From NCBI RefSeq assembly GCF_044324875.1, contig NZ_CP172185.1: 64,000 bases of DNA; one strand, given 5' to 3'. Both the position numbers and the translations under genes were made by a program. Below, piece by piece: positions 1,048 to 26,302 of the stretch. Each line of letters opens with the position of its first letter. The first letter of the stretch is position 1. Below the pieces are notes generated by a model. The model did not search any database. It worked only from the letters and a program-made list of their open reading frames with translations, and was not told where the DNA came from. The stretch comes from Escherichia coli. Its GTDB lineage: Bacteria; Pseudomonadota; Gammaproteobacteria; Enterobacterales; Enterobacteriaceae.

Positions 1048-1320
1048 ATGAATATTTATACCTTTGATTTTGATGAGATTGAGAGTCAGGAGGATTTTTA
1101 TCGCGACTTCAGCCAAGCCTTTGGTCTGGCGAAAGATAAGGTACGCGATCTCGACTCACTATGGGATGTGTTAATGAACGATGTCCTGCCGCTACCACTT
1201 GAGATTGAATTTGTTCATCTGGGAGAGAAAACGCGTCGCCGTTTTGGCGCGTTAATATTGCTGTTTGATGAGGCAGAGGAAGAGCTGGAAGGGCATTTGC
1301 GTTTTAATGTTCGTCATTAG
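1048..1320 (+). CDS. yhcO: Barstar-like putative ribonuclease inhibitor YhcO
   Basis: 90-aa [24 protein letters not shown]..., recognised as YhcO. Confidence 0.85.
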
Positions 1321-1324
1321 CGCA

Positions 1325-1348
1325 AAAAAAAGCCCCCGAACCGGGGGC
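1325..1348 (-). terminator. Terminator hairpin downstream of yhcN
   Basis: GCCCCCG-AA-CCGGGGGC stem preceded by an A-run on the plus strand (U-run for the minus-strand transcript). Confidence 0.5.
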
Positions 1349-1375
1349 AATATCGTCGGACAAGACGATGAGGGT

Positions 1376-1639
1376 TTATTTGTACAGTTCAGCCGTAGCG
1401 TGCCAGGTGTCACCGCTACGAGCTTCAGTAATCTGGTAGGCCGTTGCGCCTTTCTCTTCCGCTTTTTTGTTCAGCATTTCACGCATATCCATTGGCGAAG
1501 ACGCCACACCACTTACGGATACGGTCCCGATTGCTTCACGATTTTGTGCTTGTGCAGCATCAATGGAGTCGGCAGCGAATGCACCGAAAGAGAGAACAGA
1601 AAGTACGCTTAATGCAGCAACAGTGGTTTTGATTTTCAT
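1376..1639 (-). CDS. yhcN: Stress-induced periplasmic DUF1471 protein YhcN
   Basis: ORF 1376-1690; start taken at internal ATG giving MKIKTTVAALSVLSVLSFGAFA signal peptide (87 aa). Confidence 0.85.
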   Translation of the reverse strand: MKIKTTVAALSVLSVLSFGAFAADSIDAAQAQNREAIGTVSVSGVASSPMDMREMLNKKAEEKGATAYQITEARSGDTWHATAELYK

Positions 1640-8437: not shown

Positions 8438-8953
<516 letters not shown>

Positions 8954-8965
8954 TCGGGATTATAG

Positions 8966-9361
<396 letters not shown>

Positions 9362-9393
9362 TTGGCTTCTGCTCCGGCAGAAAACAATTTGCG

Positions 9394-9421
9394 AAAAAAC
9401 CCGCTTCGGCGGGTTTTTTTA
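9394..9421 (+). terminator. Rho-independent terminator of rplM-rpsI
   Basis: ACCCGC-TTCG-GCGGGT stem followed by TTTTTTT. Confidence 0.8.
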
Positions 9422-9515
9422 TGGCCTAAGTCCGAATCCAGCCTCTTTTCCTTCTCACTACAGCATTATTCTCTGTAAACGGTATTTTCCTCGCACTATA
9501 GAAAAGGATATCGCG

Positions 9516-10310
9516 ATGGGATTTTTTAATACATTGTTTAATAAGAAAGAATCATTAACGCTGTCGAATAAATGGGAATTCTTTATTACCACGGTGGAAG
9601 ATAATGTAACGGGCATACGTGTAGATATTGGCGCAATTGAGGACGAAAAATTTGATCGTCTTATCCACACATGGTTTTTACGTGTCCGTTATACTGACTG
9701 TTATGAAAACGGTTTTCCGCAACCTGATGAAACACAGCGTTTAAATCGTATTGAGGACTGGCTTGAGGCGCAGGGTAAAACACTACCGATCTGGCTAGTG
9801 GGTGTGGTTACGCAACAAGGTTCACGCGATTTTGTTTTCCAGTCAGAAAAAGACCTGGACTGGGAAAAGACATTGGATAAATTGTTGGCAGGTGGCCCGG
9901 AGCTCGCTTGCAGCTTTAATGAGAGTAAAAACGACCACGGAAATTACTACCGCCAGTTTTTGTATCCAACCAAATACGACTGGAACTGGATACACGATTC
10001 CCGAGTATGCCGCGGGTTACTGGAGCATGGTGACGATTTGACTCTCCCACGCACCATCGATTATTACGCGACATTGCCGACAGAAACTGCGGCCCACGCC
10101 TTTGTGGAGGACGTGACGAAATTGCCATATGGCATCACGCTGGTGAGCATTCGGATGAACGACCAACAACCGGAGTATATGGCGTCATTGATTAACACTG
10201 ATGCTCCGGAACAATGGCATATGACCGATATCACATGCCAGCTTACCGATTTGGCGGAAAAGCATGGAGGTAGTTTTGATGGCTGGGGCGCACCGATAGC
10301 AACGGCATAA
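9516..10310 (+). CDS. Accessory protein, apparent DUF695 N-terminal domain fused to an RraB-like (regulator of RNase activity B fold) C-terminal domain
   Basis: First ATG after the rpsI terminator in ORF 9285-10310, AAGGA RBS about 9 nt upstream; 264 aa; C-terminal ...QLTDLAEKHGGSFDGWGAPIA resembles the RraB family; no gene at this site in K-12 as I recall. Confidence 0.6.
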   Translation: MGFFNTLFNKKESLTLSNKWEFFITTVEDNVTGIRVDIGAIEDEKFDRLIHTWFLRVRYTDCYENGFPQPDETQRLNRIEDWLEAQGKTLPIWLVGVVTQQGSRDFVFQSEKDLDWEKTLDKLLAGGPELACSFNESKNDHGNYYRQFLYPTKYDWNWIHDSRVCRGLLEHGDDLTLPRTIDYYATLPTETAAHAFVEDVTKLPYGITLVSIRMNDQQPEYMASLINTDAPEQWHMTDITCQLTDLAEKHGGSFDGWGAPIATA

Positions 10311-10578
10311 AGGTTTAAAACAACATTCCCGGTGGGGACTAAGTCAAGCATTTCAGACTAAAGCGCATCTCTTTTTCCCCATTTCCGGCATCGACTCACC
10401 ACAAAGGTCGCAAAATCTGGTAAACTATCATCCAATTTTCTGCCCAAATGTCGGGTATTGCTCATTTTTTGTTTAATTTTCGAACAAAGAGAGTCGTTCC
10501 TTACTGGGTAACACAACTTCTGACTGGCCACCTGGTGGCTGGTAGCAGTAAAAATTCTGACTATACCTGGAGGTTTTC

Positions 10579-11217
10579 ATGGCTGTCGCTGCCAACAAAC
10601 GTTCGGTAATGACGCTGTTTTCCGGTCCTACTGACATCTATAGCCATCAGGTCCGCATTGTGCTGGCTGAGAAAGGTGTAAGTTTCGAGATCGAACACGT
10701 GGAAAAGGACAATCCGCCTCAGGATCTGATTGACCTCAACCCGAATCAGAGCGTTCCGACCCTGGTGGATCGTGAGCTGACCCTGTGGGAATCTCGCATC
10801 ATTATGGAATATCTGGATGAGCGTTTCCCGCATCCGCCACTGATGCCTGTTTACCCGGTAGCTCGCGGTGAAAGCCGTCTGTACATGCATCGCATCGAAA
10901 AAGACTGGTACACGCTGATGAACACCATCATCAACGGTTCAGCTTCTGAAGCAGATGCCGCACGTAAGCAACTGCGCGAAGAACTGCTGGCGATTGCGCC
11001 GGTCTTCGGTCAGAAGCCGTACTTCCTGAGCGATGAGTTCAGCCTGGTCGATTGCTACCTTGCTCCGCTGCTGTGGCGTCTGCCGCAACTGGGTATCGAG
11101 TTCAGCGGCCCGGGTGCGAAAGAGCTGAAAGGCTATATGACCCGCGTCTTTGAGCGTGACTCTTTCCTTGCTTCTTTAACTGAAGCTGAACGTGAAATGC
11201 GTCTGGGCCGGAGTTAA
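10579..11217 (+). CDS. sspA: Stringent starvation protein A
   Basis: 212-aa ORF MAVAANKRSVMTLFSGPTDIYSHQVRIVLAEKGV..., GGAGG RBS. Confidence 0.96.
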   Translation: MAVAANKRSVMTLFSGPTDIYSHQVRIVLAEKGVSFEIEHVEKDNPPQDLIDLNPNQSVPTLVDRELTLWESRIIMEYLDERFPHPPLMPVYPVARGESRLYMHRIEKDWYTLMNTIINGSASEADAARKQLREELLAIAPVFGQKPYFLSDEFSLVDCYLAPLLWRLPQLGIEFSGPGAKELKGYMTRVFERDSFLASLTEAEREMRLGRS

Positions 11218-11763: not shown

Positions 11764-13131
11764 TTAATAAAATAGCGTGATAGTGGCAATCATATTCACC
11801 ACGAAACCGACTGCCATGGGGATCGCTGTCCGCTTCACTACCGCAAAAGGCGAAACGCCTGCAATTCCTGACGTAACGACCACCACCGCAGTAATCGGCG
11901 AAACAGCGCGCGCTAGCGTCGTGGCAAAATGCATCGGCATAATCATTACAACCGCTGGTACATGTAGTCCGGCTGCGATATTCGGAATAAGACTGGCAAA
12001 TGACATAAACGGCGCATTGCCTGAGCCCATCACAATGGCACAAATGGCAATGACCAGCGCCATAATAATCATCACGCCAATACCGCCCAGGCCAGAATGC
12101 TCCGCACCCCTGATAACCGCATCGACAGTGCCAATCGTCGTTAAGCCTTTCGCAAATATTTCACCCGCGACCACCAGCGTTACCACGTTGGCAAACTGCG
12201 TACCCATGCCGTCAAAAAACGCCTGCACATCGTCCATTGTTTCGCGCAAGTTATGCTTGCGGAAGAACTCAACAAACATCGTCACCGTCAAACTCAGTAA
12301 CATCACCACCACCAGATGCAGTTCTGACTGCATCAGCCCGACGTGGGCAAGGAACAGCGAGCCGAGCATCAGGATTAACGGCATCACAGGTAAAATGGCG
12401 TAATAGAGCGGCGGGACATTATCGAGAGCTTTTTGCTCTGCCTGTTCGTGATTGATATTTTTATCTTTTTTGTCGAAAGCGCGTTGCACGAAAAAGTGGG
12501 AGATCGCCACCGAGATAATGACGCAAGAGGCGACCGGAAGCTGGTAGTGGAAGAAGTAAGTGGCAATTTTCATTCCTGCTACCTGGGCAGCAAAAATGGA
12601 GTTCGTTTCCAGAATCCCCCACTCAATGGACATGGTGGTTGCGATAACCGCCACCGCAGAGAGACGACTTACTCCCAGACTCACCAGCGTCGGAAATAAG
12701 GTGACCATCAGCAACATACCCAGACCGGAGGCGCTGGTAATAAACTGCGCCATGATTTGGCCGATGACGTAAGTTGCCGACAGAATAATATACGGCGAGC
12801 GAATAAGTTTTAACGGGCGGCTTAACAAGCTCACCATCGCACGACTGGCCCCTATGCGCTCCATATAGCGGGCATAACCGCCCACTGCCATAATCGACAG
12901 CCCCAATCCGGCAATGCGGTTGGACAGCATGCGCAGGATTTCATTATAAATATCGACGATCAAGTAGCCGCTGCTTTTGGCGGGATCGAGCACACCACCG
13001 AACCCTAACCAGACACCGCACATCATCAGGAAGATACCTGCGGCAGCCAGCACCACCTGAGGTTTGTAGTTTTTCAGGATCAAATAGCCCATCGTAATTA
13101 ATACGATGACAGATATAATTATGCCGAACAT
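11764..13131 (-). CDS. dcuD: Anaerobic C4-dicarboxylate transporter (DcuC family) DcuD
   Basis: ORF 11764-13149; start taken at [25 protein letters not shown] (455 aa). Confidence 0.9.
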
Positions 13132-13510
13132 TGTTGAACTCCGTGTCAAAAGAAAACGGTCAATCCCATAAACGGCAGATTGAAAACAATGATGTTATAT
13201 TTTTTGCAAGGCTATTTATGGTGCGGATGTCGTGTTTTTAATTGTAGATGAGGTGATTTTTCATTAAAAAATATGCGCTTATGATTATTTTGTAAGAACA
13301 CATTCATAATATTCATAATACTTGTTAATAGTCTTATGAATAATTCAATCGGGATGTTTTTATCTGCGTTACATTAATTTTTCGCAATAGTTAATTATTC
13401 AGTTAATTATAGTAATGATGAGGCACAAAGAGAAAACCCCGCCATTTCCCCCTACTTTCAATCCTGTGATAGGATGTCACTGATGATGTTAATCACACTG
13501 ACCTTACAGA

Positions 13511-14423: not shown

Positions 14424-15317
14424 ATGGCAACGAATTTACGTGGCGTAATGGCCGCACTCCTGACTCCTTTTGATCAACAACAAGCACTGGATAAAGCGAG
14501 TCTGCGTCGCCTGGTTCAGTTCAATATTAAGCAGGGCATCGACGGTTTATACGTGGGTGGTTCTACCGGCGAAGCCTTTGTACAAAGCCTTTCCGAGCGT
14601 GAACAGGTACTGGAAATCGTCGCCGAAGAGGCGAAAGGCAAGATTAAACTCATCGCCCACGTCGGTTGCGTCAGCACTGCTGAAAGCCAACAACTTGCGG
14701 CATCGGCTAAACGTTATGGCTTCGATGCCGTCTCCGCCGTCACGCCGTTCTACTATCCTTTCAGCTTTGAAGAACACTGCGATCACTATCGGGCAATTAT
14801 TGATTCGGCGGATGGTTTGCCGATGGTGGTGTACAACATTCCTGCCCTGAGCGGGGTAAAACTAACCCTGGATCAGATCAACACCCTGGTTACGCTGCCT
14901 GGTGTCGGCGTGCTGAAACAAACCTCTGGCGATCTCTATCAGATGGAGCAGATCCGTCGTGAACATCCGGATCTGGTGCTCTATAACGGTTACGACGAAA
15001 TTTTCGCCTCTGGTCTTCTGGCGGGCGCTGATGGTGGTATCGGTAGTACCTACAACATCATGGGCTGGCGTTATCAGGGTATTGTGAAGGCTCTGAAAGA
15101 AGGCGATATCCAGACCGCGCAGAAGCTGCAAACCGAATGTAATAAAGTCATTGATTTACTGATCAAAACGGGCGTATTCCGCGGCCTGAAAACGGTCCTG
15201 CATTATATGGATGTGGTGTCTGTGCCGCTGTGCCGCAAACCGTTTGGTCCGGTAGATGAAAAATATCTGCCAGAACTGAAGGCGCTGGCCCAGCAGTTGA
15301 TGCAAGAGCGCGGGTGA
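14424..15317 (+). CDS. nanA: N-acetylneuraminate lyase
   Basis: 297-aa [34 protein letters not shown]... Confidence 0.96.
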
Positions 15318-15425
15318 GTTGTTTCCCCTCGCTCGCCCCTACCGGGTGAGGGGAAATAAACGCATCTGTACCCTACAATTTTCATACCAAAGCGTGTGGG
15401 CATCGCCCACCGCGGGAGACTCACA

Positions 15426-16916
15426 ATGAGTACTACAACCCAGAATATCCCGTGGTATCGCCATCTCAACCGCGCACAATGGCGGGCATTTTCCGCTGCC
15501 TGGTTGGGATATCTGCTTGACGGTTTTGATTTCGTTTTAATCGCCCTGGTACTCACCGAAGTACAAGGTGAATTCGGGCTGACGACGGTACAGGCAGCAA
15601 GCCTGATCTCCGCAGCCTTTATCTCTCGCTGGTTCGGTGGCCTGATGCTCGGCGCTATGGGTGACCGCTACGGGCGTCGGCTGGCAATGGTCACCAGTAT
15701 CGTTCTCTTCTCGGTCGGGACGCTGGCCTGCGGTTTTGCGCCAGGCTACATCACCATGTTTATCGCGCGTCTGGTCATCGGCATGGAGATGGCGGGTGAA
15801 TACGGTTCCAGCGCTACCTATGTCATTGAAAGCTGGCCAAAACATCTGCGTAACAAAGCCAGTGGTTTTCTGATTTCAGGCTTCTCTGTGGGGGCCGTGG
15901 TTGCCGCTCAGGTCTATAGCCTGGTGGTTCCGGTCTGGGGCTGGCGTGCGCTGTTCTTTATCGGCATTTTGCCAATCATCTTTGCTCTCTGGCTGCGTAA
16001 AAACATCCCGGAAGCGGAAGACTGGAAAGAGAAACATGCAGGCAAAGCACCGGTACGCACAATGGTGGACATTCTCTACCGTGGTGAACATCGCATCGCC
16101 AATATCGTGATGACGCTGGCGGCAGCTACTGCGCTGTGGTTCTGCTTCGCCGGTAACCTGCAAAATGCCGCAATCGTCGCTGTACTCGGGCTGTTATGCG
16201 CCGCAATCTTTATCAGCTTTATGGTACAGAGTACGGGCAAACGCTGGCCAACGGGCGTAATGCTGATGGTGGTCGTGTTGTTTGCTTTCCTCTATTCATG
16301 GCCGATTCAGGCACTGCTGCCAACGTATCTTAAAACTGAACTTGCTTATAACCCGCATACTGTCGCCAATGTGCTGTTCTTTAGTGGCTTTGGTGCGGCG
16401 GTGGGGTGCTGCGTCGGTGGCTTCCTCGGTGACTGGCTGGGAACCCGCAAAGCGTACGTTTGCAGTCTGCTGGCCTCACAGCTGCTGATTATTCCGGTAT
16501 TTGCGATTGGTGGCGCAAACGTCTGGGTGCTCGGTCTGTTACTGTTCTTCCAGCAAATGCTTGGTCAGGGCATCTCCGGGATCTTACCGAAACTGATTGG
16601 CGGTTATTTTGATACCGACCAGCGTGCAGCGGGCCTGGGCTTTACCTACAACGTTGGCGCATTGGGCGGCGCACTGGCCCCAATCCTCGGCGCGTTGATC
16701 GCTCAACGTCTGGATCTGGGGACGGCACTGGGCTCGCTCTCGTTCAGTTTGACGTTTGTGGTGATCCTGCTGATTGGTCTGGATATGCCTTCTCGCGTTC
16801 AGCGTTGGCTGCGCCCGGAAGCGTTGCGTACTCATGACGCTATCGACGGCAAACCATTTAGCGGTGCCGTGCCGTTTGGCAGCGCCAAAAACGATTTAGT
16901 CAAAACCAAAAGTTAA
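15426..16916 (+). CDS. nanT: Sialic acid MFS transporter NanT
   Basis: ORF 15396-16916; start at ATG 15426 giving [22 protein letters not shown] (496 aa). Confidence 0.95.
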
Positions 16917-16963
16917 TCCTGTTGCCCGGTCTCTGTACCGGGCCTTTCGCTAAGGGAAGATGT

Positions 16964-17649
16964 ATGTCGTTACTTGCACAACTGGATCAAAAAATCGCTG
17001 CTAACGGTGGCCTGATTGTCTCCTGCCAGCCGGTCCCTGACAGCCCGCTCGATAAACCCGAAATCGTCGCCGCCATGGCATTAGCTGCAGAGCAGGCGGG
17101 TGCGGTCGCCATTCGCATTGAAGGTGTGGCAAATCTGCAAGCCACGCGTGCGGTGGTGAGCGTGCCGATTATCGGGATTGTAAAACGCGATCTGGAGGAT
17201 TCTCCGGTACGCATCACGGCCTATATTGAAGATGTTGATGCGCTGGCGCAGGTGGGCGCGGACATTATCGCGATTGACGGCACCGACCGACCGCGTCCGG
17301 TGCCTGTTGAAACGCTACTGGCACGTATCCACCATCACGGTTTACTGGCGATGACCGACTGCTCAACGCCGGAAGACGGTCTGGCATGCCAAAAGCTGGG
17401 AGCCGAAATTATTGGCACCACGCTTTCTGGCTATACCACACCTGAAACGCCAGAAGAGCCGGATCTGGCGCTGGTGAAAACGTTGAGTGACGCCGGATGT
17501 CGGGTGATTGCCGAAGGGCGTTACAACTCGCCTGCTCAGGCGGCAGATGCGATGCGCCACGGCGCGTGGGCGGTGACGGTCGGTTCTGCTATCACACGTC
17601 TTGAACACATTTGCCAGTGGTACAACACAGCGATGAAAAAGACGGTGCT

Positions 17650-17653
<4 letters not shown>
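16964..17653 (+). CDS. nanE: N-acetylmannosamine-6-phosphate 2-epimerase
   Basis: ORF 16922-17653; start at ATG 16964 giving [23 protein letters not shown] (229 aa). Confidence 0.93.
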
Positions 17654-18986
<1,333 letters not shown>

Positions 18987-19005
18987 AACTTAGTTCGTTT
19001 TAAAG

Positions 19006-19030
19006 ATTCTCCAGACAGTGTCTGGAGAAT
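19006..19030. repeat. 25-bp palindrome ATTCTCCAGACA-G-TGTCTGGAGAAT between convergent yhcH and yhcG; probable bidirectional terminator and member of a local palindromic repeat family
   Basis: Perfect 12-bp arms around a 1-nt centre, read directly. Confidence 0.6.
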
Positions 19031-19045
19031 TCGAAACCGCTGAAA

Positions 19046-20134
19046 TTAACGGCGTCTATAGCCTTCCTCTAGCACCGCCTGTGTTCGAACGAGTTCATCT
19101 GCGAGTCGTTTCTCATCAGGTAGTTGCATCTTATATTCGCTTGCCAGAACGGTGTTAGGCAAACCTGCCAGAGCATAATGCGCTTCGCCGGCTCCTTTCT
19201 CTGCACAGAGAATCAGACCGATGGGCGGATTTTCATCCGGTAGCGTCCAGTGATCTTTGGCGTAGTTGAGATACATATTCATCTGTCCGGCATCGCTATA
19301 GCTGAATTTGCCCACTTTTAGATCGACGATTAGCAGGCAGCATAAACGGCGGTGGAAAAACAGCAGATCGACACGAAACCAGTTATCATCAATGCGTAAC
19401 CTTCGCTGCCGACCAACAAAGGCAAAATCATCCCCAAGTTCCAGCATGAAATCCATCAGGTGGTTGATCAGCGCCTCCTCGAAATCAGATTCTGAATATT
19501 CATCTTTCAATTCCAGAAATTCGAGCACAAAGGGATCGCGTATCGCCTGCTGCGGAAGAATATGCGTCTCGGTAGGAGCGTGTTGTTGCAGCATGGCTGA
19601 TTTGTCATGTGACAGTAGTGTTCGCTCATAAAATTGGGTCGCAATTTGCCGCTCTAGCTGGCGAACAGACCAGCCACAGCGGAGCGTCTCTTTTTCATAA
19701 AAGCTACGAGCGTCAGCGTTTTTAACAGAAAGCAAACGGACGTAAGTGGACCAGGGCCGGGGGAAAGATTTGGCAGACAGCGTCTGCCAAATCTTTCCCG
19801 ATGGGAATTCTGCAGACGGTGTCTGCGGAATTTCAACATGTTGAAAAAAGAGGTAAAAAAGTCTCATTTGGCGCAAGTTTTTTGCAGAGAACCCACGCTT
19901 ATACCTTAGACATAAATCCTTTGATAGTCGCTTGATTAGCTGCGCACCATACGCAGCCCTGGCCTCGCCACCTTGTTCAAATTCGACAATTCGTCGGCCA
20001 ATTTCCCAGTATGTCGCGGTCATCAGCGCGTTAACGCTACGTACCGTTTCCGTCCGGGCGCTATCGACCAGGTGAATAATACCGTCGTGGATTTGCTGGT
20101 AGCCTGTTGAGGTTCTCTCTGAGAGCGATTCCAT
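19046..20134 (-). CDS. yhcG: YhcG, DUF1016 protein with predicted PD-(D/E)xK nuclease fold
   Basis: 362-aa ORF MESLSERTSTGYQQIHDGIIHLVDSARTETVRSVNALMTATYWEIGRRIVEFEQGG... Confidence 0.85.
   Translation of the reverse strand: MESLSERTSTGYQQIHDGIIHLVDSARTETVRSVNALMTATYWEIGRRIVEFEQGGEARAAYGAQLIKRLSKDLCLRYKRGFSAKNLRQMRLFYLFFQHVEIPQTPSAEFPSGKIWQTLSAKSFPRPWSTYVRLLSVKNADARSFYEKETLRCGWSVRQLERQIATQFYERTLLSHDKSAMLQQHAPTETHILPQQAIRDPFVLEFLELKDEYSESDFEEALINHLMDFMLELGDDFAFVGRQRRLRIDDNWFRVDLLFFHRRLCCLLIVDLKVGKFSYSDAGQMNMYLNYAKDHWTLPDENPPIGLILCAEKGAGEAHYALAGLPNTVLASEYKMQLPDEKRLADELVRTQAVLEEGYRRR
19761..19832. repeat. Two adjacent palindromic units inside the yhcG reading frame, related to the 19006-19030 palindrome
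   Basis: 19761-19799 perfect 18-bp arms around AGC (GGGAAAGATTTGGCAGAC/GTCTGCCAAATCTTTCCC); 19805-19832 imperfect copy GAATTCTGCAGACGGTGTCTGCGGAATT; shared core CAGAC(A/G)G(C/T)GTCTG. Confidence 0.6.
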
Positions 20135-20317
20135 TATCTGTCCCTTTATATGGCGCTGCGTTGAATAATGGAATCAGCTATACGCCGGGCATCTACCGGT
20201 AACAATCCAGATGTGCGTATTACATTGGTTTTCTTCAGATTATGCGAGGCGCTTTCCAGTACGAAAGGAGAATTTCAGCGCCGACTCTTTTCTGAGGAGG
20301 CGGCGCTGGGACAGAGT

Positions 20318-21748
<1,431 letters not shown>

Positions 21749-24700
21749 TTACTGCGCCTGCACGCGCAACTCTGCTGCGCTACGACTACGGTGACCCAGC
21801 AGTGCTTTTACATCACTGGACTTCGGTTTAACCAGCGCAAATTTAGTGGCGAAGGTTGACCAGTTCGCCAGAATCTCTTCACCACGCTGGGAACCGGTAT
21901 GCTGCACATGCTCGGTGATAAGTCCACGCAGATGCTCTTCATGGATCGCCAGATCGTCAACGCTTAAGACCTCGACCAGTTCCGGGTTAACGCGTTTGCG
22001 GAAATCGCCGCTTTCATCGAGAACGTAAGCGAAGCCGCCGGTCATGCCCGCGCCGAAGTTAACGCCGGTTTTACCGAGAATACAGACAATACCGCCTGTC
22101 ATATATTCACAGCCGTTGTCGCCAATGCCTTCTACCACGGTGATAGCACCGGAGTTACGCACGCCGAAACGTTCACCCGCGCGGCCTGCGGCATACAGAC
22201 GACCTCCGGTCGCGCCATACAGGCAGGTGTTGCCGATAATGCTTGCTTCATGGCTGCGGAAGGCTGAGCCAACCGGAGGACGAATGGCGATTAAGCCGCC
22301 CGCCATGCCTTTACCAACATAGTCGTTGGCATCACCGGTCAGGTACAGTTCCACGCCGCCCGCGTTCCACACGCCGAAGCTCTGGCCTGCGGTGCCGTTG
22401 AAGTACGCTTTGATCGGATCGGCTGCCAGACCCTGATCGCCGTGCGTCTGGGCGATATAGCCTGAAAGCGACGCGCCGACAGAACGGTCGGTGTTGCGAA
22501 TATCGAACCAGAAGGTTTTGCTCTGACGCTCATCGACAAACGGTTTTGCCTGTTGCAGCAACTGCGCGTTCAGCAGACCGTTATCAAACGGCGGGTTGTT
22601 TTCGGTGCAGTAAAGTGCCTTACCAGCATGCGGCTCGGCAGTCTCCAGCAGCTTCGACAGTGCCAGTTTCTGCTGTTTGGCGGTGAAACCGTCCAGCTCT
22701 TTCAGCAGGTCGGTGCGACCAATCAGATCCACCAGACGCGTTACCCCCAGTTGTGCCATCAGCTCGCGGGTTTCTCGGGCGATAAACTCAAAGTAATTAG
22801 TCACCTTGAACGGCAGGCCGTGATAGTGATTCTTACGCAGTTTGTCATCCTGAGTTGCAACACCCGTAGCGCAGTTGTTCAGATGGCAAATACGCAGATA
22901 TTTACAACCGAGCGCCACCATCGGGCCAGTGCCGAAGCCGAAGCTTTCTGCGCCGAGAATCGCCGCTTTGATGATATCGACACCCGTTTTCAGGCCGCCA
23001 TCAACCTGCAAACGAATTTTATGACGTAAACCGTTGGCAACCAGCGCCTGTTGGGTTTCCACCAGGCCGAGTTCCCACGGACAGCCTGCGTATTTCACCG
23101 ATGAAAGCGGACTTGCGCCGGTGCCGCCGTCATAGCCTGCGATGGTGATCAAGTCCGCATAAGCTTTCGCCACGCCAGTCGCGATGGTGCCGACGCCCGG
23201 TTCGGACACCAGCTTCACGGAGATCATCGCTTTCGGGTTAACCTGCTTGAGGTCGAAAATGAGCTGCGCTAAGTCCTCGATAGAATAGATATCGTGGTGC
23301 GGCGGCGGGGAGATCAGCGTCACGCCCGGCACCGAATAGCGCAGTTTGGCAATGTAAGGAGTGACTTTATCACCCGGCAACTGACCTCCTTCGCCCGGCT
23401 TCGCGCCCTGGGCGACTTTAATCTGAATCACGTCAGCATTGACCAGGTACGCCGGAGTAACGCCGAAGCGACCAGAAGCCACCTGCTTGATGCGCGACAC
23501 TTTGTTAGTGCCGTAGCGCGCCGGATCTTCACCACCTTCACCGGAGTTCGAGTTACCGCCGATGCTATTCATCGCTTCCGCCAGCGCCTCGTGGGCTTCC
23601 GGGCTTAACGCGCCGATAGACATCGCAGCGGTATCGAAGCGTTTAAACAGTTCGCTTGCCGGTTCAACATCGGCAATGTTGACTGCGTTTTCACCCGGCG
23701 TAATTGCCAGCAGATCGCGCAGCGTGGTTGCCGGACGCTCATTAACCAGCTTCGCGTATTCCTGATAGTCGCTGTACTCGCCGCTTTGTACCGCCTGTTG
23801 CAGCGTGCGCACCACGTCCGGGTTGTAGGCGTGGTATTCGCCGCCGTGGACGTATTTCAGCAGGCCGCCCTGGCTGATGGGCTTACGCGCCAGCCAGGCA
23901 CGTTTCGACAGGTTCAGCAGATCCTGCTGGAAGTCTTCAAAGCTTGCCCCACCAATGCGGCTGACCGCTCCCTGGAAGCACAGGCCCACTACATCATCGT
24001 GTAGACCGACCGCTTCAAACAGTTTCGAGCAGCGGTAAGAGGCGATGGTGGAGATGCCCATTTTGGACATGATTTTGTACAAGCCTTTGTTGATGCCGTT
24101 ACGGTAGTTCAGCATCACTGTACGATAATCTTTGGCAATCGCATGGGTGTCTACCAGGCGGCCCAGCGTTTCATAGGCAAGGTATGGATAAATAGCCGTC
24201 GCACCGAAGCCCAGCAACACGGCGAAATGGTGCGGATCGCGGGCGCTGGCGGTTTCGACGATGATGTTGGCATCGCAACGCAGGCTTTGATCGACCAGAC
24301 GGGTCTGGATCGCGCCAACCGCCATCGGGGCTGGAACCGGCAGGCGATCTTTAGCGATATTCCGGTCGGAGAGCACCAGCAGCACGGTGCCGCTACGTAC
24401 CATTTTTTCGGCTTTGTCACACAGCTCTTTGACCGTCGCTTCGAGCGTTGTTTTAGTGACGTCAAAGGTGATATCCAGCGTATCTGCGCGGTAGTGCTCC
24501 TCTTTCATCGTCGTGAGCTGTTTGAAATCGGAGTAGAGCAGAATCGGCGATTTAAAGCTTAAACGGTGCGCCTGGCCTTCTGCTTCACAGAAGACGTTCA
24601 TTTCACGACCGATACTGGTGGCGAGCGACATAACATGCGCTTCACGCAGCGGGTCGATTGGCGGGTTAGTCACCTGGGCAAATTGCTGGCGGAAGTAGTC

Positions 24701-26302
24701 GTAAATGATGCGTGGCTGACTGGAGAGCACGGCGAATGGGGTGTCGTCGCCCATCGAACCGACCGCTTCCTGACCGTTTTCGCCCAGCACGCGAATTACG
24801 GAGTCCAGCTCTTCCGCGCTGTAGTTAAACTGTTTCTGGTAGCTGGCAAGTGTGTCGTCGTCCAGTTCGCGGCTACCTACTTCTTCATCGGGCAGATCTT
24901 CAAACGGTACCAGTCGGCGGACGTTTTTCTCCATCCACTCTTTATATGGATGGCGGCTTTTCAGATCGTCATCGGTTTCTGCCGAGTGCAGAATACGCCC
25001 ACTGCGGGTGTCGATAACCATCAGTTCGCCTGGCCCGACGCGGCCTTTTTCGACCACTTCGTCAGGCTGGTAATCCCAGATACCGACTTCAGAGGCGCAG
25101 GTGATGAGCTTATCTTTGGTAATGACGTAGCGTGCCGGACGCAGACCGTTACGGTCGAGGTTACAGGCGGCAAAACGACCATCGGACATCACGATGCCCG
25201 CCGGGCCATCCCACGGCTCCATATGCATGGAGTTAAAGTCAAAGAAGGCACGCAGTTCCGGGTCCATATCCGGGTTGTTCTGCCAGGCGGGTGGCACTAA
25301 CAGGCGCATGGCACGGATGATATCCATCCCGCCTGCCAGCAGCAGTTCCAGCATGTTATCCATGGAACTGGAGTCAGAACCGGTTTCGTTGACGAACGGC
25401 GCGGCGTCGTGCAGGTCAGGGATCAGCGGCGTCTGGAATTTATAGGTACGTGCACGCGCCCATTGGCGGTTACCGGTGATGGTGTTGATTTCACCGTTAT
25501 GCGCCAGATAGCGGAACGGCTGCGCCAGCGGCCAGCGCGGTACGGTGTTAGTGGAGAAGCGCTGGTGGAACAGGCAGATGGCCGATTCCAGACGCAGGTC
25601 CGCGAGGTCCAGGTAGAAGCGCGGCAGATCCGCCGGCATACACAGACCTTTATAGATGTTCACCAGATTCGACAGGCTACAGACGTAGAAGTCTTTGTCG
25701 GCTTCGAGACGCTTTTCAATGCGGCGGCGGGCGATAAACAGACGGCGCTCCATATCGCGCGGACGCCAGCCTGCCGGGGCGTTCACAAAAATTTGCTCAA
25801 TGCGTGGCAGAGAGGAGAGGGCGATTTCACCCAGCACGCCTTCGTTAGTGGGGACATCACGCCAGCCCACAATCGACAACGTTTCGCGTTGCAGCTCTTC
25901 TTCAACGATGCGGCGTGCGGCAGCGGCGAGTTCAGGATCTTTATTCAGGAAGAGCATCCCGACGGCGTAGTTTTTTGCTAAACGCCAGCCGCGCTCCTGC
26001 GCAACGATGCGAAAAAAGCGATCCGGTTTTTGTAACAGCAAGCCGCAACCGTCACCGGTTTTACCATCGGCGAGAATCGCGCCACGGTGCTGCATGCGGG
26101 CCAGTGCGTGTATTGCAGTACGCACTACCTTGTGGCTAGGTTCGCCTTCTATGTGGGCGATCAGGCCGAAACCACAGTTATCCCTCTCAAGGGATTTATC
26201 GTACAACATATCGTGAACCTCCCCCAGGCTCTGCGGGAACCCCACTTCCGAACCGCTGCGCACGGGCACAGAAAGAGCGTGGCGACGGGGTTTGCGTGTC
26301 AT
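21749..26302 (-). CDS. gltB: Glutamate synthase large subunit
   Basis: ORF 21749-26317; start taken at MTRKPRRHALSVPVRSG... (propeptide before Cys of CGFGL), 1517 aa. Confidence 0.93.
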   Translation of the reverse strand: MTRKPRRHALSVPVRSGSEVGFPQSLGEVHDMLYDKSLERDNCGFGLIAHIEGEPSHKVVRTAIHALARMQHRGAILADGKTGDGCGLLLQKPDRFFRIVAQERGWRLAKNYAVGMLFLNKDPELAAAARRIVEEELQRETLSIVGWRDVPTNEGVLGEIALSSLPRIEQIFVNAPAGWRPRDMERRLFIARRRIEKRLEADKDFYVCSLSNLVNIYKGLCMPADLPRFYLDLADLRLESAICLFHQRFSTNTVPRWPLAQPFRYLAHNGEINTITGNRQWARARTYKFQTPLIPDLHDAAPFVNETGSDSSSMDNMLELLLAGGMDIIRAMRLLVPPAWQNNPDMDPELRAFFDFNSMHMEPWDGPAGIVMSDGRFAACNLDRNGLRPARYVITKDKLITCASEVGIWDYQPDEVVEKGRVGPGELMVIDTRSGRILHSAETDDDLKSRHPYKEWMEKNVRRLVPFEDLPDEEVGSRELDDDTLASYQKQFNYSAEELDSVIRVLGENGQEAVGSMGDDTPFAVLSSQPRIIYDYFRQQFAQVTNPPIDPLREAHVMSLATSIGREMNVFCEAEGQAHRLSFKSPILLYSDFKQLTTMKEEHYRADTLDITFDVTKTTLEATVKELCDKAEKMVRSGTVLLVLSDRNIAKDRLPVPAPMAVGAIQTRLVDQSLRCDANIIVETASARDPHHFAVLLGFGATAIYPYLAYETLGRLVDTHAIAKDYRTVMLNYRNGINKGLYKIMSKMGISTIASYRCSKLFEAVGLHDDVVGLCFQGAVSRIGGASFEDFQQDLLNLSKRAWLARKPISQGGLLKYVHGGEYHAYNPDVVRTLQQAVQSGEYSDYQEYAKLVNERPATTLRDLLAITPGENAVNIADVEPASELFKRFDTAAMSIGALSPEAHEALAEAMNSIGGNSNSGEGGEDPARYGTNKVSRIKQVASGRFGVTPAYLVNADVIQIKVAQGAKPGEGGQLPGDKVTPYIAKLRYSVPGVTLISPPPHHDIYSIEDLAQLIFDLKQVNPKAMISVKLVSEPGVGTIATGVAKAYADLITIAGYDGGTGASPLSSVKYAGCPWELGLVETQQALVANGLRHKIRLQVDGGLKTGVDIIKAAILGAESFGFGTGPMVALGCKYLRICHLNNCATGVATQDDKLRKNHYHGLPFKVTNYFEFIARETRELMAQLGVTRLVDLIGRTDLLKELDGFTAKQQKLALSKLLETAEPHAGKALYCTENNPPFDNGLLNAQLLQQAKPFVDERQSKTFWFDIRNTDRSVGASLSGYIAQTHGDQGLAADPIKAYFNGTAGQSFGVWNAGGVELYLTGDANDYVGKGMAGGLIAIRPPVGSAFRSHEASIIGNTCLYGATGGRLYAAGRAGERFGVRNSGAITVVEGIGDNGCEYMTGGIVCILGKTGVNFGAGMTGGFAYVLDESGDFRKRVNPELVEVLSVDDLAIHEEHLRGLITEHVQHTGSQRGEEILANWSTFATKFALVKPKSSDVKALLGHRSRSAAELRVQAQ

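Follow-up and report, generated by a model that had tools for sequence, protein, structure and literature searches.

In this Escherichia coli chromosome the interval between rpsI and sspA holds a gene of 264 codons that K-12 lacks, and the explanation that we consider probable is that a resident gene of this locus has been deleted in most E. coli and that its product is a protein-binding regulator. The DNA analysed, referred to below as the window, is a stretch of 64,000 nucleotides. A preliminary reading made from the letters alone (the sequence-only reading) had interpreted the gene as an accessory insertion into a highly conserved locus; what it observed was confirmed, and its interpretation is partly supported. 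In the history that we propose, the gene would have occupied the rpsI-sspA interval for a long time in Escherichia, Salmonella and related enterics, and most E. coli would carry one deletion allele, the K-12-type spacer of 394 bp, from which ~0.9 kb was removed. A minority lineage that includes IAI39 and CE10 would still have the gene, and the window would come from such a strain.

The open reading frame lies, as the sequence-only reading placed it, behind a ribosome-binding site (AAGGA, 7 nt ahead of the ATG) and between the rplM-rpsI terminator and the upstream region of sspA (Table 1), and the C-terminal peptide quoted in that reading is an exact translation of the DNA. The lower GC content that had been noticed by eye is also borne out: the gene has 45.9% (GC3 47.9), while its neighbours range over 50.7-54.4% and the window as a whole has 51.2%. 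The product is 100% identical to a database protein (P0032, 'DUF695 domain-containing protein [Escherichia coli]'), which is listed for 203 contigs. These records, together with the matching of full-length Pfam models, a dN/dS of 0.10-0.13 (~0.12) across alleles and a confident AlphaFold2 model (pLDDT 95.3, pTM 0.88), establish the reading frame as a real chromosomal gene, whose product is a soluble, acidic, two-domain cytoplasmic protein (pI 4.7, lacking any long hydrophobic stretch). Both the protein and its family are already in the databases, where they have so far been catalogued as uncharacterised.

Table 1. Features of the rpsI-sspA interval and its surroundings, in window coordinates
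Feature	Position	Strand	Remarks
rplM	8526-8953	+	
rpsI	8969-9361	+	
rplM-rpsI intrinsic terminator	9393-9420	+	12-bp stem; RNA fold -17 kcal/mol, z -3.35
5' leader/intergenic region	9421-9515	+	RBS AAGGA at 9504-9508; conserved blocks GCCTAAGTCCGAATCCAGCCTCTTTTCC and AGCATTATTCTC
Left CTAAGTC	9426-9432	+	Part of the conserved leader; CTAAAATC at that position in the empty site
Segment without a solid collinear K-12/BL21 counterpart	9438-10334		897 bp, against 74 bp there
Coding sequence	9516-10310	+	264 codons; ATG at 9516, stop ending at 10310
DUF695 domain	9567-9965	+	Residues 18-150; Pfam E 1.7e-32
RraB-family domain	9987-10289	+	Residues 158-258; Pfam E 1.3e-23; motifs GDDL..PR.IDYY and GGSFDGWG
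sspA upstream region	10335-10578	+	98% identity to K-12
Right CTAAGTC	10339-10345	+	Within sequence common to K-12
sspA	10579-11217	+	sspB next, also +

The non-coding DNA on either side of the gene belongs to a conserved setting. The stem of the upstream terminator is flanked by both an A-run and a U-run, which would allow it to work bidirectionally, and its hairpin does not vary among the aligned loci, whether occupied or empty. When occupied sites are aligned, both conserved blocks of the leader are seen to be kept from Escherichia to Salmonella. Scanning of the + strand of the leader gave no consensus sigma-70 promoter, and a + strand scan of the gap between the gene and sspA gave no intrinsic terminator, the fold of 10305-10385 reaching a z of only -1.24. 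A candidate small RNA in the leader was rejected: the match to STnc370 (antisense, 9388-9453) reached 32.5 bits, below the gathering threshold of 54, is absent from the Salmonella, Escherichia-clade and BL21 loci, and is an artefact of the terminator hairpin.

The two domains proposed from the letters alone, DUF695 and RraB, are both recovered by Pfam over essentially the full models, the former as PF05117 (113 bits, model positions 1-134 of 134) and the latter as PF06877 (83.9 bits, 1-101 of 102). All 133 aligned relatives possess both, so the "fusion" that had been singled out as distinctive is the standard architecture of the family. Derivation of the DUF695 domain from a duplicated and diverged RraB domain was also considered and rejected (hhalign of the N-terminal against the C-terminal half, probability 1%). 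Searched against the PDB, the family profile found Vibrio cholerae VC0424 (1NXI) across the C-terminal domain (E 1.7e-12, with the GD..IDH and YDGWG motifs) and no solved homologue of the DUF695 half; the C-terminal domain also has the VC0424-like alpha/beta fold that characterises the RraB family. Conserved positions are chiefly G, P, W and L and polar ones are few; E80, D173, R179 and D255 are among the conserved residues. The family is large: HMMER searching of 1.84 billion representatives returned 1331 clusters (at 50% identity) with E<1e-3, typically of ~250 aa and aligned end to end, and the AFDB relatives that superpose at TM 0.8-0.9 belong to Proteobacteria, Bacteroidota, Firmicutes, Actinobacteria, Planctomycetes and others. 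These relatives include Streptococcus members, and none of them is characterised. A literature search found no paper on DUF695, PF05117, PF06877 or 'RraB-like'.

Within E. coli the gene is variable rather than core, as had been anticipated. Its specific 886 bp are present in 48 of 5426 complete genomes (~1%) at 98.9-99.7% identity, each of the 48 carriers having a single, chromosomal copy that is annotated "DUF695 domain-containing protein", and at every E. coli site displayed the gene stands between rpsI and sspA. Among the carriers are IAI39 and CE10, both of which we take to be phylogroup F strains. The statement that K-12 has no gene here was upheld by genome comparison: MG1655 and BL21 lack it and have an identical rpsI-sspA spacer of 394 bp. 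Nearly all of the non-carrier complete genomes match the query over ~518 bp, as K-12 does, a uniformity consistent with a single deletion allele. SI-NP020 has a third and shorter spacer type (315 bp), accompanied by a divergent sspA.

Outside E. coli the same slot is occupied again and again, and this speaks against the insertion proposed in the sequence-only reading. With the gene denoted X, exact look-ups of homologues recovered the order zapE-rplM-rpsI-X-sspA-sspB around orthologues in other enterics as well. It holds for alleles of 84-88% amino acid identity, among them those of 84-86% in an Escherichia lineage that NCBI files under "E. coli", in Escherichia sp. E1V33 and in E. whittamii; the closest alleles outside E. 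coli are ~88% identical in protein. An 81% allele occupies this slot in Salmonella enterica, where it is named 'putative cytoplasmic protein' (WP_077906546.1, Q57JC5); the order rplM-rpsI-DUF695-sspA can be read from the RefSeq annotation of serovar Senftenberg NCTC10384. Salmonella carries this orthologue widely (its cluster comprises 1350 sequences, one of them recorded for at least 1000 contigs), in contrast to the rarity of the gene in E. coli. Its tag in strain LT2 is presumably STM3343, which appears in one paper, within a list of genes of unknown function. The Salmonella protein is annotated in RefSeq as starting at Met15 (250 aa); a GTG stands at the position of the E. coli start, and this codon and the conserved N-terminal peptide that follows suggest a longer form of the protein there.

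More distant alleles carry the arrangement further. A 70% allele (locus L011) shows the order rpsI-X-sspA, and at a locus with a 52% allele (L016) the visible sequence runs from the 3' end of the S9 gene through the terminator, the gene itself and the sspA upstream region to the start of sspA. A 62% allele begins directly after the same terminator and leader and has other genes downstream. A genome-wide locus scan with strict peptide patterns gave 3 loci, and the outgroup sites inspected, which leave out E. fergusonii, E. albertii, Citrobacter and Klebsiella, are occupied. All of the enteric orthologues are of low GC (46-47%); since this composition is common to all of them, it is no sign of a recent arrival.

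Synonymous divergence was compared between the gene and its neighbours. The dS to Salmonella is 0.97 for the gene, 1.04 for sspB and 2.18 for zapE, and between E. coli and cryptic-clade alleles it is ~0.6 for the gene and 0.26-0.5 for the flanks. Locus L011 stands apart, in that its flanks differ by a dS of 0.30-0.56 and its gene by ~2.5, a saturated value; this contrast indicates that alleles at the slot are replaceable, and the replacement presumably took place by homologous recombination through the near-invariant flanks. In the proposed history, the ultra-conserved rplM-rpsI and sspA flanks would ease exchange of the slot's contents by this route, and such ease of exchange would account for one Escherichia-like locus having a far more divergent allele.

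The empty site was aligned with the window from its two anchored ends. On the left, window positions 9362-9437 correspond to positions 1-76 of the K-12 spacer (70 of 76 matching), and on the right, 10335-10578 correspond to spacer positions 151-394 (239 of 244). Weaker homology continues inward from both blocks, by ~5 nt on the left (to ~9442) and by ~18 nt on the right (from ~10316). At the left edge K-12 has TCTGAATC-AGC where the window has TCCGAATCCAGC, and at the right edge AAAACCACATCGCCAATAAGGG where the window has AAAACAACATTCCCGGTGGGG; on either side this homology extends past the minimal spacer of the SI-NP020 type. Local alignments of the middle ~50 bp of the K-12 spacer to the gene are no better than those of shuffled sequences, and the idea that coding-sequence remnants lie in mid-spacer was accordingly dropped, with only the end homologies standing. 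Remnants of both inner ends in the K-12 spacer are the pattern expected from an internal deletion, and on the strength of these short end homologies the spacer can be read as a probable deletion scar. Homology of the spacer to the inner edges of the window segment, combined with the presence of orthologues in the same slot elsewhere, argues that absence is the derived state.

The junctions had previously been sought in a direct repeat, CTAAGTC. Its two copies are where they were reported to be, with the reported spacing of 913 nt, and can be extended to 9 of 10 matches; the role given to them as junctions did not survive. The two intergenic regions share four 7-mers, where shuffled versions share 2.85 on average and at least one in 89% of shuffles, and the 1.2-kb interval contains 14 comparable direct-repeat families. 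Moreover, the empty site has the right copy and, as a degenerate left copy, CTAAAATC, so that the repeat is not a target-site duplication. Its recurrence is chance.

That a foreign gene, of accessory or defence type, recently arrived here by horizontal transfer, with CTAAGTC marking its junctions, is on these grounds very improbable. The rarity of the gene (48 of 5426 complete genomes), its GC content below that of the flanks and the direct repeat of 7-10 bp that brackets it are what such an event might leave behind, but each has a counterpart on the other side: the slot is filled in Salmonella, E. whittamii, the cryptic clades and distant enterics, with divergence that tracks that of the flanks; the low GC is shared by every orthologue; and the repeat occurs at chance level with the positions of both copies present in the empty site. 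There is, in addition, no integrase, transposase or other mobility ORF at the locus and no terminal inverted repeat. Insertion of a mobile element or genomic islet was therefore rejected, on the chance-level repeat, the lack of a mobility ORF and the occupied state of the outgroup sites inspected. A known anti-phage system or a phage origin was rejected likewise, and with it the suggestion of a defence-type accessory protein. The protein matches no PADLOC-DB family at E<=1 and no PHROG family at E<0.1, and in the plasmid and phage collections it is carried by no true plasmid and no true phage: the plasmid-collection matches are mostly to records of 0.4-4 Mb, of which those inspected resemble chromosomal DNA or chromids, and the phage-collection matches are to unannotated fragments of 2.7-3.5 kb that match host DNA.

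Closer to the resident-gene reading is a variant in which loss at the base of E. coli was followed by re-import: a divergent Escherichia would have donated the gene to the IAI39/CE10-like lineage, with the near-identical rplM-rpsI and sspA flanks serving for homologous recombination. We consider this history unlikely, though less so than insertion. The uniformity of the deletion allele in nearly all E. coli, the small set of carriers with alleles at least 98.9% identical, the allele replacement demonstrated at L011 and the excess of gene dS over flank dS between E. coli and the cryptic clades are all in keeping with re-import. Against it, none of the donors sampled carries an allele close to identity (~88% in protein at most), and identity profiles of the window against a carrier strain and against BL21 reveal no recombination tract around the gene: the first 14 kb of the window are ~99% identical to one gene-bearing strain, and identity to BL21 beside the gene is unremarkable. 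The carrier lineage, then, may either have retained the gene or have re-imported it by recombination; deletion of a resident gene in most E. coli is the reading that we prefer.

What the protein does was approached through its only studied relative. RraB binds a short part of the C-terminal region of RNase E, residues 694-727, and inhibits RNase E or remodels the degradosome (PMC4435900; PMC4980113). E. coli RraB (YjgD) is a single domain of 138 aa with an acidic tail (47 D+E, pI 4.05); the protein described here, in contrast, adds a DUF695 domain of 150 aa, has no acidic tail and is more mildly charged. BLASTP likeness between the two is confined to 17 residues around the LAEK..YDGWG motif (E 0.001). 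The protein thus departs from RraB proper in each of its defining traits, namely a single domain of ~138 aa, the acidic tail and orthology to yjgD, and, as rraB of K-12 lies elsewhere in a genome that lacks the DUF695-RraB gene, it is paralogous to RraB at best. A parallel in overall layout is NCBIfam TIGR01619 (hyp_HI0040 equivalog), typified by Haemophilus influenzae HI0040, which has the same two domains in ~250 aa. The alignment to this model runs from end to end (residues 18-258 against model positions 4-246 of 250) with a score of 18 bits (E 0.002), well short of the curated cut-off of 149.4 bits, which places the protein in a different subfamily. Proteins from Neisseria and Pedobacter that bear the TIGR01619 name superpose on it at TM 0.80-0.87; HI0040 is likewise uncharacterised.

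From the homology of the C-terminal domain to RraB and from the lack of a catalytic signature we infer that the product is most likely an acidic, non-enzymatic regulator that binds other proteins through its RraB-like domain. Such a protein would act stoichiometrically as a modulator, its RraB-like domain docking on a partner and its DUF695 domain, rigidly packed against the other, contributing specificity or sensing. RNase E and the degradosome are the leading candidate partner in enterics by analogy with RraB, a suggestion that we put forward only tentatively and with the balance against it. To our knowledge, Streptococcus, Bacteroidota and Actinobacteria do not have the E. coli-type C-terminal region of RNase E. 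Occurrence of the family in bacteria without RNase E makes a partner other than RNase E at least as likely. A broader proposal, that DUF695+RraB proteins are general protein-binding regulators of the RNA-decay or translation machinery, or else that the gene has a function shaped by conflict, which its deeply divergent alleles between invariant flanks would mirror, we rate as improbable.

The neighbourhoods of the gene and its homologues bear on whether it works in a set. In enterics its neighbours are rpsI and sspA, while the surroundings of distant homologues are unrelated to these and to one another (pta/AraC; ksgA-ispE; LacI/TctC/enolase-like), and neighbours vary in every non-enteric context sampled, none of them being kept as a partner. 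The gene stands alone, outside any conserved system, and a toxin-antitoxin or immunity pair was rejected because no conserved partner gene adjoins it in the contexts sampled. The idea that the protein is instead an orphan immunity protein, an antitoxin-like protein or an anti-phage decoy engaged in an arms race would explain the presence of divergent alleles in a conserved slot, and is in line with alleles that are 52-99% identical between nearly invariant flanks, with the allele replacement seen in one lineage and with a small, acidic, non-enzymatic product. We nevertheless judge it highly unlikely: a dN/dS of ~0.12 denotes purifying and not diversifying selection, no toxin or partner gene is adjacent in any context, PADLOC is negative, and the family is spread across many phyla as a single-copy, stand-alone gene. 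A role in small-molecule sensing, in which ACT-like or ferredoxin-like domains would bind a metabolite, is also unlikely, though less so; the fold matches concerned are generic (<15% identity), there is no known ligand motif, and the sole studied homologue works by binding protein. A protein-binding regulator is the function that we favour.

These results give no pointer to a new kind of system. They describe a conserved gene of a large uncharacterised family that is widespread in Salmonella and under purifying selection, and the apparent insertion into a core locus is more aptly taken for the ancestral condition, with K-12 carrying a derived deletion. K-12 is for this reason a poor reference for polarity, and old alleles that remain open to exchange can persist in slots enclosed by ultra-conserved genes. 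If proteins of the DUF695+RraB family are general regulators of the RNA-decay or translation machinery, the enteric member would join RraB as a second modulator of this type for RNase E, and mRNA turnover or the stress responses linked to sspA would have been rewired by its loss from most E. coli and its persistence in Salmonella.

The slot between rpsI and sspA holds several divergent alleles of the DUF695-RraB gene (the features are collected in the table below). In a metagenome contig (L011), the flanks of the gene are Escherichia-like, with dS values of 0.30-0.56 relative to the window, and the DUF695-RraB protein itself is only 70% identical, with a saturated dS of ~2.5. This is an allele replacement within the same rpsI-sspA slot. 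The 62%-identical orthologue in L013, from an organism with a GC content of ~43%, is preceded by the same rpsI terminator and leader; downstream of it, genes for a LysR protein, a metallo-beta-lactamase-fold protein and a short-chain dehydrogenase are found in place of sspA.

Coordinates of features at the DUF695-RraB locus and its homologues
Feature	Locus	Coordinates	Strand	Remarks
Salmonella orthologue	L004	4001-4795
Salmonella orthologue	L029	3043-3795
DUF695-RraB allele	L011 (ERR3179308_29895)	1790-2590
62%-identical orthologue and surroundings	L013	1-130 and 1213-3980
Third rpsI-sspA spacer type	L003 (E. coli SI-NP020)	1063-1377		315 bp
dcuC/dcuD transporter gene	window	11764-13149	-	between sspB and nanR

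The Salmonella orthologue is annotated as starting at Met15, giving 250 aa. Because Salmonella has a GTG where the E. coli gene has its ATG, and because residues 1-14 (GFFNALF.KKESL) are kept across alleles, the comparison suggests that the annotated start lies too far downstream. Pieces of this orthologue are also present in two short GenBank records labelled 'Salmonella phage S.Kent 1-2-1' (OR851148.1 and OR851009.1), which look like host DNA; similarly, several PLSDB 'plasmids' of 0.7-4 Mb (NZ_LN868944.1, NZ_CP064203.1 and NZ_CP084075.1) look like chromosomes or chromosome pieces.

In E. coli SI-NP020, which carries a third type of spacer, the region before the sspA promoter is joined directly to the terminator leader. 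The adjoining sspA is only 90.6% identical to that of the window, and by its sequence the segment looks like an import from divergent Escherichia.

A sub-threshold match to STnc370, a Salmonella sRNA family in Rfam, overlaps the bidirectional rpsI terminator (window 9388-9453, minus strand); it scores 32.5 bits, where the gathering score of the family is 54. This is probably hairpin noise, since the loci of Salmonella, the Escherichia clades and BL21 gave no match at E<=0.01.

Relative to the nearest complete E. coli genomes, identity is ~99% over the first 14 kb of the window and only 95-97% from the nan operon to gltDB (14500-25000), falling to 89% in the gene for a PDDEXK nuclease (yhcG-like), especially at 19501-20000. 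We also note that in BL21 this gene is truncated and adjoins a transposase gene.

The sspB-nanR interval holds the dcuC/dcuD gene in the window, K-12, BL21 and Escherichia sp. E1V33. Among the loci compared (L004, L005-L007, L009 and L029), the gene is missing from this position in Salmonella and in the Escherichia lineage of L005-L007. This is a second presence/absence difference, adjoining the DUF695-RraB locus.
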